Shown: positions 49,077-55,397, counted from the first letter of the stretch. The stretch: DNA of 64,000 nt from Omnitrophica bacterium GWA2_41_15 (GCA_919902105.1 CAKKQO010000017.1:3305-67304); one strand, 5' to 3'. The notes: a model not told the origin generated them from the letters alone. Translations and numbers: made by a program.

Positions 49077-52000
49077 ATGAAATTACCCCAATTTGGCGTA
49101 AAATTTCCGGTTACTAATATTATGATTTTCTTCGCGGTGTTAGTATTGGGGCTGGTAGCGTTGTCTAAACTGCATATCGATCTTATGCCTGAGATTGAGC
49201 CGCCGGTGATCTCGGTAATTACCGTTTATGAAGGGGCGGGCGCCGAAGACGTTGAGACAAAGGTCACGGAAATTATCGAGAATAATTTAGCCACCGTTTC
49301 AAACTTAGATAAGATAACATCGCGTTCGCTGGAAGGCCTTTCTGTTGTCAGCTGCCGTTTTAATTGGGGGACAAACCTTGATGAGGCATCCAACGATGTG
49401 CGCGATAAATTAGAATTTGCCAAGCGGCTCTTACCCGAAGAGATAGAAACGCCCATAGTATTTAAGTTTAATACCGCGATGATTCCGATATTATTTGTCG
49501 GGGTAAGTTCTCCAGCTGAAAAATACCCCCAGCTGTATCATTTAGTAGATAAAGAGGTTAGCGACGAACTAAAAAGAATCCCGGGAGTGGGCGCAGTACA
49601 GATGTACGGAGGCCTGGAGCGCCAGATTAACGTTAAGCTCGACCGCGCGCGCATGGAAGCATATAACCTCTCTACCCAAAAAATAATAGAAAGGCTATCG
49701 CAGGAAAATATCACCCTGCCGGCGGGTAATCTAAAAACCGGATATCTCGATTATACTTTAAGGCTTATCGGAGAATTCCGCAGCCCCGCGCAATTAAGAG
49801 ATGTTATTTTGGCGCAGGCAGGCGAGAAGAAGGTCTATTTAAAAGACGTAGCGGAAATAGAGGATTCCTACAAAGAAGAAACCATGGTCCTAAGGACCAA
49901 CGGTAAGCCAGGTGTAATGATGATGGTGCAGAAGCGCTCCGGAGCAAATACCGTAGATATAGCCCGGAAAATAAAAGCCGAGCTGAAAAAAATAGAAAAA
50001 CGTCTTCCACAAGACATAAAATTTTCTATTCTTATGGACAGCTCAGAGCATATTATTCAGTCTATCAGGGATTTAACACAGACACTTTACTGGGGCGGCA
50101 TATTCGTTGTTTTGGTAGTGTATATATTTTTACGCCAAATCCGCCCGAGCTTGATTATCGCCCTGACTATACCGTTTTCCCTGATTATTTCTTTTATCTT
50201 TATGTATTTTTTCGGCTACACGCTTAATATTCTTTCACTTTCCAGTCTTGCCATTGCTATCGGTATGGTGGTAGATAATGCTATTGTTATTGTAGATAAC
50301 GCCTATCGCCATCGTGAGCGCGGGGAAAGCCCGCATGATGCGGCGATAAACGGCGCCTCCGAGGTAGGGCTGGCAGTTTCCGCCTCAACATTTACCACGG
50401 TAGTCGTATTTCTTCCTATGATTTTTTTAAGCGGTATTACCGGCATAATGTTTAAACAGCTGGCGATAGTTATTACGGTAACGCTTCTGGCGTCACTTTT
50501 TACTGCTTTAACTTTTAGCGCAATGCTCTGCTCAAAATTATTAACCGTTCCTCCGCCCGAGAGATTTAACAATAAAAATAAATCATTATATCAGCGGTTT
50601 TACGCAATAAGCGGCAAGTTATTTACTTCTTTAGAGAGCGCCTATGGAAGGCTTTTAAACTGGGCGCTAAAACATAAAAAAACTACTGTTTTTATTGCTC
50701 TCGGAGTTTTTGTCTTGAGCCTAGCTTTGGTGCCGAAAATAGGCACGGAATTTATCCCTGAGGAAGATACAGGCGACTTAAATATCCAGATAGAGCTTCC
50801 TGTCGGGACTCGGGTTGAGGAGACGGATAAAATCGCAAAACAAGTAGAGGGAATTTTTAAAGAAGATGTTCCCGAGACAAGGACGATTTTTTCCCGGGTC
50901 GGCTATTCCAGCACCTCGCGTTTCGGCTCTGCTTTTGGGCAGAAATTAGGCTCTAATATTATTACGGTGGGAGCAAAGTTATCTTCCTTAACCGAGCGTA
51001 AGCGCACGGTGAAAGAAATCGCCGAAAATATCCGCCCTAAGATCCGTTCTCTTTTAGGTGTAAAGAAAATAAATATACAGGCAGGCAGCCCATTTTCTAG
51101 GATTTTATTCGGAGGAGGAAAGCCGATTTTAATAGAAATCTTAGGCCATGATTTAGAGATTACCGATAACATCGCCTATAAATTAAGGGATGAAATATCT
51201 CAAATAAAAGGCGTAACCGATGCGACCATTTCGCGCGAATTGGGTAAGCCGGAATTACAGGTAGATGTAGACAGGCTAAAGGCCGCGTCTTTGGGCCTGA
51301 ATATGGATTTGATTACAGATACACTGCGGACTTATTTTTACGGCAAAGCCGCTACCAAATACCGGGAGGCAGGCGATGAATACGATATCTTCGTGCGCTT
51401 AAAAGATTCCGACCGCAGGACTGTCAAAGATATAGAAGATATCCCGATAATCTCGGCAGGCGGTAAGATTGTCCGTTTAAATAACGTTGCCCAAGTGATA
51501 CACCGCACCGGCCCTATTGAAATTGAACGCCAGAACCAGGATAGAATTGTTAGGGTGGAAGCAAATACTTTCAAACGTTCTTTAGGCCAGATTACCAAAG
51601 ACATAAAAGAAGTTATCGTAAAAACCAATATCCCGTATGATGTCAGGATTAATTTAGGGGGCGATATAGAAGAGCAGGCTAAATCATTCCGCGATTTATT
51701 CGTGCTTTTTATTTTAGGCGGGATTTTGGTTTATATGGTAATGGCATCACAATTTGAGTCAATGCTTGACCCTTTTGTCGTAATATTCTCTGTGCCTTTC
51801 GCCTTCTGCGGCACTGCCTTCGGGCTTTTTTTAACCGGTATCCCCTTAAGCATAAATGCCTTTATCGGGCTGATTATGCTCGTCGGTATCGTAGTCAATA
51901 ACGCCATTGTTTTGGTGGACTATATTAATATCTTACGTAAGCGCGGCCTTTCAATACAAGAGGCAGTTACCATCGGCGGAGCAAATCGCCTGCGCCCCAT

Positions 52001-52196
52001 CCTCATGACTACCATCACTACTATATTCGGTATGCTTCCCTTGGCTTTATCCCGCGGCGAGGGTTCAGAACTCTGGCGGCCATTAGGTATCAGCATGCTC
52101 AGCGGACTAAGTCTATCAACCTTGGTTACTCTGGTGCTTGTGCCTGTAATTTACACACTTTTTAAACAGAAATCACAATTGCAGAAAATAAAATAG
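49077..52196 (+). CDS. RND-family efflux permease (AcrB/HAE1-like)
   Basis: 1039 aa with 12-TM two-lobe architecture and the conserved AIGMVVDNAIVIVDN and LVGIVVNNAIVLVDY motifs. Confidence 0.9.
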   Translation: MKLPQFGVKFPVTNIMIFFAVLVLGLVALSKLHIDLMPEIEPPVISVITVYEGAGAEDVETKVTEIIENNLATVSNLDKITSRSLEGLSVVSCRFNWGTNLDEASNDVRDKLEFAKRLLPEEIETPIVFKFNTAMIPILFVGVSSPAEKYPQLYHLVDKEVSDELKRIPGVGAVQMYGGLERQINVKLDRARMEAYNLSTQKIIERLSQENITLPAGNLKTGYLDYTLRLIGEFRSPAQLRDVILAQAGEKKVYLKDVAEIEDSYKEETMVLRTNGKPGVMMMVQKRSGANTVDIARKIKAELKKIEKRLPQDIKFSILMDSSEHIIQSIRDLTQTLYWGGIFVVLVVYIFLRQIRPSLIIALTIPFSLIISFIFMYFFGYTLNILSLSSLAIAIGMVVDNAIVIVDNAYRHRERGESPHDAAINGASEVGLAVSASTFTTVVVFLPMIFLSGITGIMFKQLAIVITVTLLASLFTALTFSAMLCSKLLTVPPPERFNNKNKSLYQRFYAISGKLFTSLESAYGRLLNWALKHKKTTVFIALGVFVLSLALVPKIGTEFIPEEDTGDLNIQIELPVGTRVEETDKIAKQVEGIFKEDVPETRTIFSRVGYSSTSRFGSAFGQKLGSNIITVGAKLSSLTERKRTVKEIAENIRPKIRSLLGVKKINIQAGSPFSRILFGGGKPILIEILGHDLEITDNIAYKLRDEISQIKGVTDATISRELGKPELQVDVDRLKAASLGLNMDLITDTLRTYFYGKAATKYREAGDEYDIFVRLKDSDRRTVKDIEDIPIISAGGKIVRLNNVAQVIHRTGPIEIERQNQDRIVRVEANTFKRSLGQITKDIKEVIVKTNIPYDVRINLGGDIEEQAKSFRDLFVLFILGGILVYMVMASQFESMLDPFVVIFSVPFAFCGTAFGLFLTGIPLSINAFIGLIMLVGIVVNNAIVLVDYINILRKRGLSIQEAVTIGGANRLRPILMTTITTIFGMLPLALSRGEGSELWRPLGISMLSGLSLSTLVTLVLVPVIYTLFKQKSQLQKIK

Positions 52197-52227
52197 CCTA
52201 ACTTTCAACAACGAGTTAGGCTATTTT
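52194..52227 (+). terminator. Intrinsic terminator after the RND gene
   Basis: TAGCCTAAC-tttcaacaacga-GTTAGGCTA + TTTT. Confidence 0.8.
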
Positions 52228-52231
52228 AGAT

Positions 52232-52317
52232 TGGTGCCGAAGAAGGGAGTTGAACCCTTACGAGCTTACGCTCATCGGTTTTTGAGACCGACGTGTATGC
52301 CATTCCACCACTTCGGC
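52232..52317 (-). tRNA. tRNA-Leu (anticodon CAA), class II with long variable arm, CCA encoded
   Basis: Reverse complement GCCGAAG-TG-...TCGGT-CTCAAAA-ACCGA...AAGGGTTCAACTCCCTT-CTTCGGC-ACCA folds as a cloverleaf with anticodon loop CU-CAA-AA. Confidence 0.9.
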
Positions 52318-52322
52318 AGTAT

Positions 52323-52736
52323 TTATTTAAATTTTTCTTTTACGCGATTACGCGTAAAGTAGAGTATAATGATGCTGTGGTAGATTATAGAAATTATATG
52401 TTTTACCGGGCTAGGTATAGTTGTTTCCAGCGCGCCGTTGATACTAATAATTTTAGCAAAGATCAAGATTTTACTTAAAACAATTATACTGGAAAAGTAA
52501 AGTAATAACCTGTAACAATTTAAGTTATGCCTTAGTATGCCGATGCCTATGCCTAATGAGGTTAAGGCAGTAAATAAGACAAATAAAAGCACATTCAGCG
52601 GTTTTGCGGATTTGCCTTGGATAAGGCTTAAAACCACCGCAAAAAGTGTAACCGCGCCGATAAAAATTTCTATCAAGCCAAATAGTCTTATGCCCAAATT
52701 ACGTTTCATTCTCAAATAAGATTTAGTTGACGCCAC
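52323..52736 (-). CDS. Hypothetical four-TM membrane protein
   Basis: 137-aa ORF, hydrophobic throughout, directly upstream of tRNA-Leu on the same strand. Confidence 0.35.
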   Translation of the reverse strand: MASTKSYLRMKRNLGIRLFGLIEIFIGAVTLFAVVLSLIQGKSAKPLNVLLFVLFTALTSLGIGIGILRHNLNCYRLLLYFSSIIVLSKILIFAKIISINGALETTIPSPVKHIISIIYHSIIILYFTRNRVKEKFK

Positions 52737-52893
52737 CTATTTTATATTCTAAAATATCAAAGGTCAAGAGGTTAATTTGTCATTGGGGCTTGGTCATTAG
52801 AATTTTTAAGATGGGGCTGTCCCGAATGTTGTAAACTGATAATGTTTAACTTCGGGACGCCCCGAAGAGACACTTGGATAGCAAACTACATTC

Positions 52894-52969
<76 letters not shown>

Positions 52970-52973
52970 TTAC

Positions 52974-53005
52974 AGGGCGCTGAATAAGTAAAGCAGCGCC
53001 TTTTT
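52974..53005 (+). terminator. Intrinsic terminator after tRNA-Ala
   Basis: GGCGCTG-aataagtaaag-CAGCGCC + TTTTT. Confidence 0.8.
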
Positions 53006-53040
53006 AATTCTACGATAAATTTTTCGTCGGGAGGCCGCCC

Positions 53041-53069
53041 TTGAAAGAAGCCAGATTCTGTGTTATACT
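53041..53069 (+). promoter_or_regulatory. Promoter TTGAAA-17-TATACT with extended -10 TG, driving the candidate sRNA
   Basis: TTGAAA 53041-53046, TGT-TATACT 53061-53069. Shares the TTGAAA...TTCTGTGTTA core with the promoter at 53266. Confidence 0.6.
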
Positions 53070-53075
53070 ATAAGT

Positions 53076-53240
53076 AGCCGATAAAGGTAGGCCGTCAAAA
53101 AGTGCGGAGAAGAAGGTGAGGCACAACTCCTAAAGCACATGTAACTTAAGGAACGGCCGGAAGTTAGATGAAGGTGAGTTGTAAAGTTATCGCCTTTGTC
53201 GGCGTTTCTTATTAATCCCAACAGATTGTTGGGATTTTTT
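53076..53240 (+). ncRNA. Candidate structured small RNA or cis-regulatory leader of about 165 nt with its own promoter and terminator
   Basis: Closing helix GCCGAUAAAGG (53077-53087) / CCUUUGUCGGC (53192-53202). Internal GGCCGU/ACGGCC and ACAACUC/GAGUUGU pairings. Duplicated GAAGGUGAG motif. Terminator AATCCCAACA-gat-TGTTGGGATT + T run (53214-53240). Confidence 0.5.
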
Positions 53241-53265
53241 GTTGGCTTGGAACGCAAAATCTGGA

Positions 53266-53293
53266 TTGAAAATATTCGTTTCTGTGTTAAAAT
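53266..53293 (+). promoter_or_regulatory. Promoter TTGAAA-16-TAAAAT with extended -10 TG for the ybjQ-like operon
   Basis: TTGAAA 53266-53271, TGT-TAAAAT 53285-53293, SD AAGGAGG, ATG 53319. Confidence 0.6.
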
Positions 53294-53318
53294 AGTCTAA
53301 AAAGAAAGGAGGCAAAGT

Positions 53319-53633
53319 ATGCTGCTTACGAATATTGAGTCAATACCGGGTAAAAGAATTGTGGAGCATTTTGGCTTGGTTGCCGGTAGTACAGTAAGGG
53401 CTAAAAATGCTTTTAAGGATTTCGGCGCTGGCCTAAAAAATATTTTTGGCGGTGAACTGAAGAGCTACACTGCGTTATTAGAAGAATCCCGTAATCAGGC
53501 CATTGAGCGCATGGTAAAACAGGCAGAGCAATTGGGGGCAAATACGGTGGTAAATGTGCGTTTTGCTACTTCCAATATTGCCCAAGGCGCTTCAGAATTA
53601 TACGTCTATGGCACGGCAGTAAGAATAGAATAA
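53319..53633 (+). CDS. YbjQ/UPF0145 family protein
   Basis: 104 aa. IPGK.I....G.V.G..VRAKN.F.D..AG.KNIFGGEL..Y...L...R..A..RM...A...GANTVVNVRF....I..G..E...YGTAV. Confidence 0.75.
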   Translation: MLLTNIESIPGKRIVEHFGLVAGSTVRAKNAFKDFGAGLKNIFGGELKSYTALLEESRNQAIERMVKQAEQLGANTVVNVRFATSNIAQGASELYVYGTAVRIE

Positions 53634-53644
53634 AAGGGGGAATA

Positions 53645-54073
53645 ATGGGTGAATTAATATACCTTATTATTTTAATCGCGTTGGGCTATTTTGTGGGAAC
53701 AAGGGTTGAAAGGCGGCACTACCGGTTGATAGAAGAGCGCGAGAGGAACTTATTGCATCTTCCTGCTGTCTGCGGCAAGGATTTTTTAGAAGATAGAGCC
53801 ATAAGCGAGAGCCGGTTAGTTTATGGAAGCGTAGTGGTTTCTACTGATTATTTTAAATTGATTCTGGCAGGGTTAAGGAATCTGTTGGGAGGAGAAATTT
53901 CTGCCTATGAGAGTATTCTTGACCGCGGCAGAAGGGAATCAGTCCTGCGCATGAAAGAAAAGGCCGTTGGTGCAGACATAATACTGAACCTGCGCATTGA
54001 AACTTCACGGATTACCGAAATGGGCTCTATGGAAGTTTTTGCCTACGGCACAGCGGTTTATTACAACAGATAA
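53645..54073 (+). CDS. YbjQ/UPF0145-like protein with N-terminal TM anchor
   Basis: 142 aa. One TM helix, then a second, more divergent YbjQ-like domain (LLGGEISAYE...FAYGTAV). Confidence 0.6.
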   Translation: MGELIYLIILIALGYFVGTRVERRHYRLIEERERNLLHLPAVCGKDFLEDRAISESRLVYGSVVVSTDYFKLILAGLRNLLGGEISAYESILDRGRRESVLRMKEKAVGADIILNLRIETSRITEMGSMEVFAYGTAVYYNR

Positions 54074-54888
54074 TGAAATATACCGCCCGGGAAATCAAGG
54101 GTAATGATAATATATCGGCCAGTTCGCCTGTTAAAGATTTTTTTGAGCTGATATTTAAGATTCTGGGAATCCTTTTGGCTGTATATATAGGGTTAGGATT
54201 TTTAGTTGATTATCTTGCCCCGCGGATTTCCTCAAGTTTAGAATTAAAATTAGGCAGGGCCTTTTCTAAAAAATTCGACGAAAAGCCGCTTTCAAAGGAA
54301 GAAAAAGAACTACAAAGAATTTTGGAAAATCTGCTAAAACACGCCGATTCCCTGCCGAAATTTGATTATAAAGTAAATATAGAGGAGTCTAAACAAGTTA
54401 ACGCCTTCGTTCTTCCGGGAGGCCGTATTGTCGTCTTAAACGCTTTATTAAAAAAAGTAGGTTCCGAAAATGAAATTGCTATGGTCCTCGGGCATGAATT
54501 GGGGCATTTTGCCTACCGTGACCATTTGCGCGGCCTCGGTCGTAACCTAATAGCTCTATTAATTTCTTCTTTCTTATTCGGCTCAGACAGCTCTATCAGC
54601 CAAGCCGTAAGTAATTCTATCACCAATGCCGAAATGAGATTTTCGCAAAGCCGGGAAAGGGCCGCAGACATTTATGGTTTAGAGTTATTAAATAAAGCCT
54701 ACGGGAATGTTTCCGGGGCAACGGATTTTTTTGAAAAGATGGGTGCAGAGGAAAAAGCGGGATGGTTTTTTTATATTTTTGCCAGCCATCCTTATCCGAA
54801 AAGCCGGGTAGCGGCGCTAAAGGAAGCGATTAAGACAAAAAGATACAGCATAGCCCAGAAGATACCTTGGCCCGGCTCAGGAGAATAA
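54073..54888 (+). CDS. M48 family zinc metallopeptidase
   Basis: 271 aa. TM helix, HELGHFAYRDH (HExxH), downstream ERAAD. Start overlaps the previous stop (ATAATG). Confidence 0.75.
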   Translation: MKYTAREIKGNDNISASSPVKDFFELIFKILGILLAVYIGLGFLVDYLAPRISSSLELKLGRAFSKKFDEKPLSKEEKELQRILENLLKHADSLPKFDYKVNIEESKQVNAFVLPGGRIVVLNALLKKVGSENEIAMVLGHELGHFAYRDHLRGLGRNLIALLISSFLFGSDSSISQAVSNSITNAEMRFSQSRERAADIYGLELLNKAYGNVSGATDFFEKMGAEEKAGWFFYIFASHPYPKSRVAALKEAIKTKRYSIAQKIPWPGSGE

Positions 54889-54898
54889 TTGAGGAAAA

Positions 54899-55393
54899 AT
54901 GGCGAATTTTTCTTTTGATATTGTTTCAGAAGTAGATATGCAGGAAGTGGATAACGCCATAAATCAGGCCAAAAAAGAGCTTGTCCAGCGCTATGATTTT
55001 AAGGGCAGTAAGTCTTCGATTGAATTTGACCGTAGCGAAAAAAAATTGACCCTAATCGGAGATGATGATTTTAAACTGCGCGCCTTAAGGGATATTTTAG
55101 CAGGGCGCCTTGCCAAAAGAGGAGTCTCGTTTAAATTTCTTACTTTTAAAGAGCCGGAAAAGGCATTTGAGGGGACCTTGCGCCAGCAGGTGGAAATTGT
55201 AAGCGGCATAGACAAAGAAAAAGCCAGAGATTTAAATAAGATTATAAAGGAGTTAGGGCTAAAGGTGCAGACGCAGATTGAGGGAGAAAAAATCCGGGTA
55301 ATATCAGCAAAAAAAGACGACTTGCAGACAGTGATTGCGCATTTAAGAAGCATTGATTTTCCGCTCCCGCTTTCCTTTTGTAATTATAGGTAA
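54899..55393 (+). CDS. YajQ family nucleotide-binding protein (UPF0234)
   Basis: 164 aa. SFDIVSEVDMQEVDNAINQAKKE...RYDFKGS pattern is diagnostic of YajQ. Confidence 0.8.
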   Translation: MANFSFDIVSEVDMQEVDNAINQAKKELVQRYDFKGSKSSIEFDRSEKKLTLIGDDDFKLRALRDILAGRLAKRGVSFKFLTFKEPEKAFEGTLRQQVEIVSGIDKEKARDLNKIIKELGLKVQTQIEGEKIRVISAKKDDLQTVIAHLRSIDFPLPLSFCNYR

Positions 55394-55397
55394 GCCT

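Follow-up and report, generated by a model that had tools for sequence, protein, structure and literature searches.

A candidate stand-alone, bistable small RNA gene upstream of yajQ-leuS in groundwater Omnitrophota

The Omnitrophota are a widespread, almost wholly uncultured phylum, and our literature search found no paper on Omnitrophota non-coding RNAs, on characterised Omnitrophota small RNAs (sRNAs), or on a ybjQ riboswitch. In a 64,000-nucleotide (nt) stretch of DNA from Omnitrophica bacterium GWA2_41_15 (GCA_919902105.1 CAKKQO010000017.1:3305-67304), analysed at its full length and called the window below, a promoter, a series of mutually complementary segments and a terminator follow one another from position 53041, between a tRNA-Ala gene and a ybjQ-ybjQ-M48 operon. 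What does this locus encode? The original prediction, drawn from this one sequence, had proposed a stand-alone structured RNA unit that it could not name and had placed it between tRNA-Ala and the ybjQ-like genes. The sequence features that it listed are all present, each at or within 1 nt of the position assigned to it, and the unit, with its own promoter and terminator, turned out to be conserved in other genomes. We lean, with moderate confidence, towards reading the locus as a stand-alone small non-coding RNA gene of a new, narrow groundwater-Omnitrophota family, whose RNA is probably bistable and acts in trans. The window belongs to a groundwater Omnitrophota metagenome-assembled genome; identical contigs come from Hainich well H51, and NCBI lists the proteins under Candidatus Omnitrophota. 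The parts of the element are as follows (bp, base pairs):

53011-53031, + strand: conserved upstream box TACGATAAATTTTTCGTCGGG, A/T-rich and UP-element-like; its position suggests a role as a promoter element.
53041-53069, + strand: promoter P1 of the RNA, found by promoter scan, TTGAAA-17-TATACT with a TG extension.
53076-53087, + strand: predicted 5' end A53076, placed from the position of the -10 hexamer, and segment R1 GCCGAUAAAGG (53077-53087).
53090-53095 (GGCCGU) with 53153-53158 (ACGGCC), + strand: helix P2, which shows compensatory changes.
53096-53152, + strand: variable interior domain, a purine-rich hairpin, with the first copy of GAAGGUGAG at 53112-53120 and ACAACUC at 53123-53129.
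53159-53177, + strand: conserved junction strand GGAAGUUAGAUGAAGGUGA, containing segment R2 (53166-53177), which carries the second GAAGGUGAG copy and is complementary to R3.
53178-53189, + strand: variable loop of hairpin H3.
53190-53203, + strand: segment R3 UCGCCUUUGUCGGC, which pairs with R1 (closing helix P1) or with R2 (hairpin H3).
53214-53236, + strand: hairpin H4, an intrinsic-terminator stem-loop AAUCCCAACA-GAU-UGUUGGGAUU with a 10-bp stem, followed by a U run.
53237-53247, + strand: U run and conserved tail R4 UUUUGUUGGCU, complementary to A53076-G53086 (helix P0).

The productive route to homologues led through the gene transcribed divergently upstream of the RNA: the closest relatives of the membrane protein that it encodes were collected, and their contigs were inspected. 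This protein is identical to that of the window at 90% of its amino acids in L258/L259, 74% in L260 and 70% in L261. The RNA family found so far comprises five distinct copies in four related Omnitrophota genomes, namely the window, the sister strain L258, L260, and L261, where two copies stand in tandem, one close to the others (L261b) and one divergent (L261a), each with its own promoter and terminator. The unit is single copy in the window by self-BLAST. Contigs of the same species all carry an identical RNA sequence; two single-nucleotide polymorphisms in one of them, L009, lie in or 5' of the promoter and are uninformative. Searches further afield returned nothing more: more distant relatives of the membrane protein (61-69% identity) show neither the synteny nor the RNA, a covariance model made from the RNA copies found no further match in the Omnitrophota loci collected (next best E=0.64), and blastn against plasmids gave no match. 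Pattern scans of viral contigs and of metagenome contigs with the duplicated GAAGGUGAG, a motif that proved a poor choice because its first copy is not conserved, gave at least 120 matches each, and the metagenome matches inspected were acidic or low-complexity tandem repeats, none of them like the RNA outside the motif. Scans of viral contigs with conserved 15-mers and 19-mers gave chance matches or none.

The signals for transcription are conserved together with the RNA. The upstream box is present as TACGMTAAATTWYYCGTCGGG before all five copies and ends 8-10 nt 5' of the -35 hexamer every time. Promoter P1 is matched by the scan in the window, in L260 and in both L261 copies, with invariant hexamers and a variable spacer, and the terminator scan matches H4 in the same four. 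Across the five copies the stem of H4 is near-invariant, its loop is variable and its spacing is constant at 3 nt. Each unit thus has its own promoter and its own terminator, and the five copy sequences contain no conserved coding signal. A further promoter, also conserved, separates the terminator from the next gene in all RNA-bearing genomes, which argues for a unit that stands alone. We infer from these signals that the RNA is expressed. Two other observations concern its hairpins. H3 in two of the five copies leads into GGCG and 7-8 U and is terminator-like by scan (L260 3440-3473 on the minus strand; L261 3297-3328 on the minus strand, which is L261b); this U run would make tandem terminators in these two, and it is interrupted in the window, L258 and L261a. 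A reading of the H4 palindrome as an integron attC-like site was rejected, as the core sites are unfit and the cassette junction lies elsewhere.

We next compared the pattern of conservation with a protein-coding background. Between the window and L260/L261, yajQ has 86-87% protein identity and 55-56% identity at third codon positions, while the conserved blocks of the RNA are 96-100% identical between the window and L260/L261b and the interior and loops 25-45%. The blocks are the promoter, the 5' end, the 19-nt junction strand, the 3' strand, the terminator stem and a 7-nt tail. Counting from 53070, 21-24 of the first 24 aligned columns, which span the 5' end and R1, are the same in all copies, as are 16-17 of the 17 columns formed by R3 and the next 3 nt (columns 128-144). 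The terminator stem with the tail UUUUGUUGGCU is identical at 30-31 of 31, and R4 is invariant in 5/5 copies, conservation ending exactly after GGCU. At the 3' strand of P2 and the junction strand (columns 89-115), L258, L260 and L261b match in 24-27 of 27 columns and L261a, the divergent paralogue in which conservation is relaxed in R1 and the junction strand, in 18 of 27. Inside P2, L260 and L261a agree with the window at only 26-29 of 62 columns, and in the H3 loop L260 and L261 agree with it at only 3-5 of 12. Sequence and structure are thus kept beyond the neutral level, as judged from the 55% third-position baseline and from compensatory changes in P2. This mosaic, typical of a structured RNA, indicates strong purifying selection.

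Two features that looked distinctive in the single sequence do not define the family. The 64-kb window holds just two occurrences of GAAGGUGAG, 58 nt apart, where 0.22 would be expected, and the match between them can be extended to 13 nt, of which 12 agree; its duplication had been listed as a feature of the unit, as had a possible pseudoknot between ACAACUC (53123-53129) and GAGUUGU (53176-53182). L260 and L261a lack both the first GAAGGUGAG copy and ACAACUC; L261b has retained the motif copy and lost ACAACUC by deletion. The ACAACUC/GAGUUGU pairing would moreover be a pseudoknot only if GGCCGU/ACGGCC is also formed; in the single-sequence ensemble of the window it is nested in a long rod, in which GGCCGU/ACGGCC is unformed.

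How the RNA might fold is indicated by both thermodynamics and covariation. Stretches of 130-176 nt from the window give folding z values of -4.5 to -5.1, with 0 of 200 shuffles folding as well, and z is -3.9 to -4.6 across the four sequences folded (window, L260, L261a and L261b). P2, the nested GGCCGU/ACGGCC helix of the original prediction, is the only helix with variation, and three of its six pairs have changed on both sides, to give GGCCCU/AGGGCC in L260 and GGCCGU/GCGGCC in L261b. This corroborates the nested helix over the single-sequence minimum-energy fold. The complementarity of the predicted 11-bp closing helix was likewise borne out, as closing helix P1, in which R1 GCCGAUAAAGG at 53077-53087 pairs with CCUUUGUCGGC at 53193-53203 over 11-12 bp with one U-G; AGAUGAAGGUGA can, however, pair with UCGCCUUUGUC (R2:R3, 11 bp, hairpin H3) in competition with it, and both pairings are invariant. 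The two purine changes that L260 has in R2 preserve the R2:R3 pairing. R1 in turn can pair with the tail R4 over 11 bp to give P0, a helix that runs from the predicted first nucleotide to the last conserved one.

Alignment-based folding returned these alternatives. RNAalifold gave P0, H3 and H4 on a plain MAFFT alignment, and a four-way junction of P0, P2, H3 and H4 on the model-based alignment A5, the covariance model of which lacks P0. In constrained folding, L260 and L261b have the four-way junction as their minimum-energy fold, and for the window and L258 it comes within 0.3-0.8 kcal/mol of the minimum; the minimum-energy fold of L261a has H3 with a partial P0, and imposing the full P0 there costs 2.8 kcal/mol. 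When transcripts are taken to end at the U run, the closing-helix P1 and H3 forms are within 0.6 kcal/mol of each other in L260, L261a and L261b, and lineage-specific helices favour the P1 form by ∼6.5 kcal/mol in the window and L258. A strand with two partners cannot easily covary, which would explain naturally why these strands are invariant; that all four strands with two possible partners are invariant is what one expects of a conformational switch.

Taken together, these data suggest the following model. A strong σ70-type promoter (A/T-rich box, TTGAAA, TG-extended -10) would start transcription at about 53076, and the hairpin and U run at 53214-53242 would end most transcripts, to give an RNA of ∼165 nt (about 165-172 nt). 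Its body would be a multi-helix junction in which P2 bears a fast-evolving purine-rich hairpin, and the invariant strands around P2 may pair in two mutually exclusive ways. In the first form R3 (53190-203) would close the molecule with the 5' end, R1; in the second, R3 would fold onto the adjacent R2 to form hairpin H3, and R1 would be freed. Should a transcript read through the terminator, the freed R1 could pair with the tail R4 to complete the four-way junction (P0, P2, H3 and H4). Action in trans might then proceed via protein binding or via base pairing of the strand freed by the switch. Duplexes predicted between the sRNA and the start regions of neighbouring genes were riddled with loops and uninformative. 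CsrA titration was tried as a function and rejected, as the count of GGA motifs varies from 1 to 3 among the copies.

Several points weigh against this model. Closing helix P1, H3, P0 and H4 are invariant, so the alignment neither supports nor opposes them. The power to detect covariation is low because there are five copies from four related genomes, of which the window and L258 differ at only ∼5 positions. The single-sequence ensembles of the window and L258 prefer a rod that uses lineage-specific helices, and the start site and 3' end are predictions. An efficient terminator would exclude R4 from the RNA and make P0 impossible; the conservation of R4 would then need another cause, for example an upstream element of the next promoter (L260, L261b). 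Finally, the RNA lies on the same strand as yajQ-leuS and 5' of it in 4/4 genomes, which also fits a cis-acting leader.

The neighbouring genes bear directly on this last point, and the flanking features are these:

52323-52736, - strand: gene for a small predicted membrane protein with no Pfam domain, divergent from the RNA.
52894-52969: tRNA-Ala(GGC), 5' of the RNA unit and with its own terminator.
53266-53293, + strand: second promoter, TTGAAA-16-TAAAAT with TG, which belongs to the downstream operon and not to the RNA.
53306-54898, + strand: ybjQ-ybjQ-M48 block, an indel with respect to the sister strain, lying inside the yajQ leader; context only.

In the window the RNA is followed 3' by two YbjQ_1 genes, an M48 peptidase, YajQ/DUF520 (Pfam) and then LeuRS (Pfam tRNA-synt_1). 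Gene order is constant in 4/4 genomes, with the membrane protein (minus strand), tRNA-Ala(GGC), the RNA, the second promoter and yajQ-leuS, and the window adds ybjQ-ybjQ-M48 before yajQ. The sister strain L258 aligns at 92-96% DNA identity to window positions 49630-52778, 52894-53305 and 54899-55396, so that it shares acrB, the tRNA, the RNA and yajQ; it lacks 53306-54898, the stretch with the three genes. L260 and L261 also lack this block. Its left junction is in the leader just past the second promoter and its right junction is at the yajQ start, and we saw no flanking repeats or recombinase at the block. The three genes are therefore best explained as a recent insertion in the window lineage, loss in three relatives being less parsimonious. 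The block is a precise 1.6-kb presence/absence difference, and a promoterless three-gene cassette would now use the yajQ-leuS promoter.

The original prediction had made the second promoter a duplicate of the first, bracketing the unit, and had tied the RNA to the ybjQ-ybjQ-M48 operon. Promoter P1 and the second promoter do have TTCTGTGTTA in common, and TGTGTTAWAMT occurs in the window only at these two promoter sites, against 0.1 expected. The second promoter is, however, conserved in the relatives as TTGAAAATAGYCGTTTTTATGYTACAAT directly before yajQ (L258, L260 and L261), and it is best read as the ancestral yajQ-leuS promoter because the sister strain has it without the three genes. The operon itself occurs in other Omnitrophota and in Nitrospirota at 49-65% M48 identity, always in a different neighbourhood, and a synteny check of five operon-bearing relatives, located by a scan of genome contigs and through M48 homologues, found no similar RNA 5' of ybjQ-ybjQ-M48, where there are 30-200 nt upstream and often too little room. 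Since the conserved operon sits in other contexts without the RNA, and since yajQ-leuS is what lies downstream in all four RNA genomes, the RNA does not appear to be a leader of ybjQ-ybjQ-M48; the link between these neighbours would be incidental and the genes unrelated passengers. We note as a caution that both the apparent ybjQ/M48 link and the "duplicated promoter" seem to have arisen from a recent 1.6-kb cassette insertion in the yajQ leader. One further similarity concerns the two promoters: a 17-nt imperfect inverted repeat, AAGCCAGATTCTGTGTT / AACGCAAAATCTGGATT at window 53048-53064 and 53251-53267, joins the spacer of promoter P1 to a ∼24-nt segment 5' of the second promoter, a segment that the window shares with L258 alone and that is missing from L260 and L261.

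With ybjQ set aside, the riboswitch-like leader once suggested for these genes survives only as a possible leader of yajQ-leuS. On that reading, which we regard as unlikely, the unit is a cis-acting leader or attenuator of yajQ-leuS (here ybjQ-ybjQ-M48-yajQ-leuS), transcripts from promoter P1 stop at H4 or read through, and the R1/R2/R3/R4 pairings set this outcome or the fate of the read-through messenger RNA (mRNA), perhaps via a ligand, a tRNA, or YajQ/LeuRS. The unit is on the same strand and directly 5' of yajQ-leuS in 4/4 genomes, in the window too once the cassette is discounted, although synteny across four fairly close genomes is weak evidence. As in attenuators and riboswitch platforms, R3 has two conserved partners (R1 and R2), R1 has a second partner in R4, a terminator follows, and the genes downstream form an aminoacyl-tRNA synthetase operon; these alternative pairings of invariant strands resemble attenuator logic. 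R4 is conserved and complementary to the 5' end despite lying past the terminator, where it is relevant only to read-through RNA. H3 with its GGCG and 7-8 U is terminator-like in L260 and L261b, but the U run is not conserved in the window, L258 and L261a. YajQ, for its part, has tandem ribonucleoprotein (RNP)-like domains and cross-links to RNA in E. coli (PMC10201417). In contrast to attenuators, however, the terminator here stays outside the competition between pairings, and the unit shows no leader peptide, no T-box sequence, no known aptamer and no match to an Rfam cis-regulatory family. The leader is disfavoured because a near-consensus, conserved promoter intervenes between the terminator and yajQ in every genome and because, on reading the sequence, we find no convincing antiterminator: the best competitors of the 10-bp H4 stem reach 6-7 bp and contain wobbles or a mismatch. 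Each of the tandem units in L261 also has its own promoter, which a leader would not need. The stand-alone gene remains the best fit because each copy has its own promoter and terminator, a promoter intervenes before the next gene, the terminator stem faces no credible competitor, and no reading frame is conserved. Like other stand-alone bacterial sRNA genes, it combines a σ70 promoter with an intrinsic terminator, a length within 100-200 nt, an intergenic position, conserved ends around a variable interior, and tandem paralogues in one genome; it differs from them in matching no described family and in the unusual invariance of its terminator stem and closing-helix strands.

The transcript itself might be functionless and the locus a DNA-level module, in which protein-binding sites control the flanking promoters: the TTT(C)GTYGG[GC] boxes (53021-53031, 53195-53203 and 53238-53246), GCCGATAAA as their inverted counterpart, and a perfect 10-3-10 palindrome (53214-53236). 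In favour of this, every "helix" has two invariant arms that do not covary, a similar box lies 5' of promoter P1 and so outside its transcript, and the palindrome spacing is constant at 3 nt. We nevertheless consider such a module very unlikely, since P2 covaries in the manner of RNA (G-C to C-G, U-A to U-G), the wobble-tolerant changes in R2 (G-U to A-U, A-U to G-U) fit RNA, as do conserved stems with variable loops, a promoter reading across the element and a canonical U run, and the window shows no enrichment of the box elsewhere (3 matches where 1.3 are expected). That the unit is an mRNA for a very small protein is scarcely credible: ATG 53168 does open a 15-codon open reading frame with a hydrophobic product (MKVSCKVIAFVGVSY, 53168-53215), but this ATG is AUA in L260, frames and lengths differ among the copies, alternative AUGs occur in only 2/5, the frame crosses invariant RNA strands into the terminator, and a proper ribosome-binding site is lacking. 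It is highly improbable that the unit belongs, as a divergent member missed by the Rfam models, to a known housekeeping or riboswitch class (6S, signal recognition particle (SRP) or M-box RNA). As the original prediction had anticipated, the RNA goes unnamed in Rfam 15: the whole window gives only two tRNAs at gathering scores, the 371-nt locus 52960-53330 only chance matches at E<=10 (small nucleolar RNAs, a CRISPR repeat on the terminator, a long non-coding RNA), and the homologous loci in L260 and L261 no RNA-family match at E<=5. At the locus, no M-box, 6S, SRP, T-box or riboswitch model matches even at E<=10. The unit does share with 6S RNA and other end-paired stable RNAs a strong promoter, complementary 5' and 3' ends, a length of ∼170 nt and adjacent tRNA genes. 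Unlike 6S RNA (RF00013 and related families), it has a branched-junction consensus instead of a rod with a central bubble, and a poorly conserved interior; even the single-sequence rod has a one-sided 26-nt bulge and no bubble. Small bacterial SRP RNA is recognised by its apical helix 8, which has a GNRA tetraloop, and by conserved internal loops; SRP and 6S RNAs conserve the apical domain, and in this unit it is that domain which is conserved least (26-29/62). T-box leaders differ in that the unit has, on our reading of the sequence, neither a UGGN-containing T-box sequence nor a strong competitor of H4. The suggested kinship with the M-box (ykoK) Mg2+ riboswitch RF00380 rested on AGGUGAGGC, a string present in the M-box core as well, to which a multi-helix fold and a similar size may be added; it falls with the lack of a covariance-model match, with the absence of AGGUGAGGC from L260 and L261a, so that the string is not conserved within the new family, and with the genes 3' of the unit, which are not Mg2+ transporters (YbjQ_1 x2, M48, YajQ and LeuRS here, yajQ-leuS in the relatives).

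As a conserved, strongly promoted structured RNA outside Rfam, the unit offers an entry point to the non-coding RNA of the Omnitrophota, and, with its invariant two-partner strands, it is a candidate for a natural RNA switch. For YajQ, which has an RNP fold, no RNA partner is known, and the constant presence of its gene beside the RNA suggests a YajQ-RNA pairing that can be tested. A bolder proposal, which is speculative and in our view quite unlikely, is that the RNA represents a new Omnitrophota class of bistable four-way-junction RNA that either couples a switch to yajQ-leuS or serves as a dedicated RNA partner of YajQ. In the coupling variant, the switch between R1:R3 and R2:R3 with R1:R4 would link termination and read-through, or RNA maturation, to yajQ-leuS. 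If true, either variant would be a housekeeping ribonucleoprotein or a regulatory device not described in any phylum.

A T-rich box recurs in three direct copies, TTTCGTCGGG, TTTGTCGGC and TTTGTTGGC, at window 53021-53031, 53195-53203 and 53238-53246. All three are complementary to the RNA 5' end; the first lies 5' of promoter P1, so it should escape transcription from there. The copies may stem from ancient duplications of the unit, or they may have a function.

Further observations concern the region to the left of the RNA. The membrane-protein family (128-137 amino acids) has 186 database matches at 55-100% identity, and those with a source name are all Omnitrophota or Omnitrophica, so the family appears to be Omnitrophota-specific. 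Independent Logan assemblies of the species break within tRNA-Ala, three of them (L007, L009 and L010) beginning at window 52906 and L008 at 52937. Because several assemblies break inside this gene, the sequence to its left is suggested to differ among co-occurring strains; window 52778-52894 is not alignable to L258, consistent with such a difference. In the relatives, one to three hairpins, e.g. AAGACCTTTCATTGATGAAAGGTCTT and GCCGAATTAATGTAATTCGGC, are inserted after tRNA-Ala(GGC), at ∼1135-1190 in L258, ∼3640-3779 in L260 and ∼3790-3846 in L261 (all minus strand), and they are absent from window 52966-52972. These insertions are flanked by a repeat of the tRNA 3' end (CTCCAC ... CTCCACCA). 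ARAGORN calls the relatives' tRNA-Ala as 74 nt without CCA, because the hairpin insertions are bracketed by this 3'-end repeat; the end that bears CCA follows 50-130 nt later. With its acceptor-like 3' end, the hairpin resembles a tRNA minihelix, or else a small insertion that duplicated its target.

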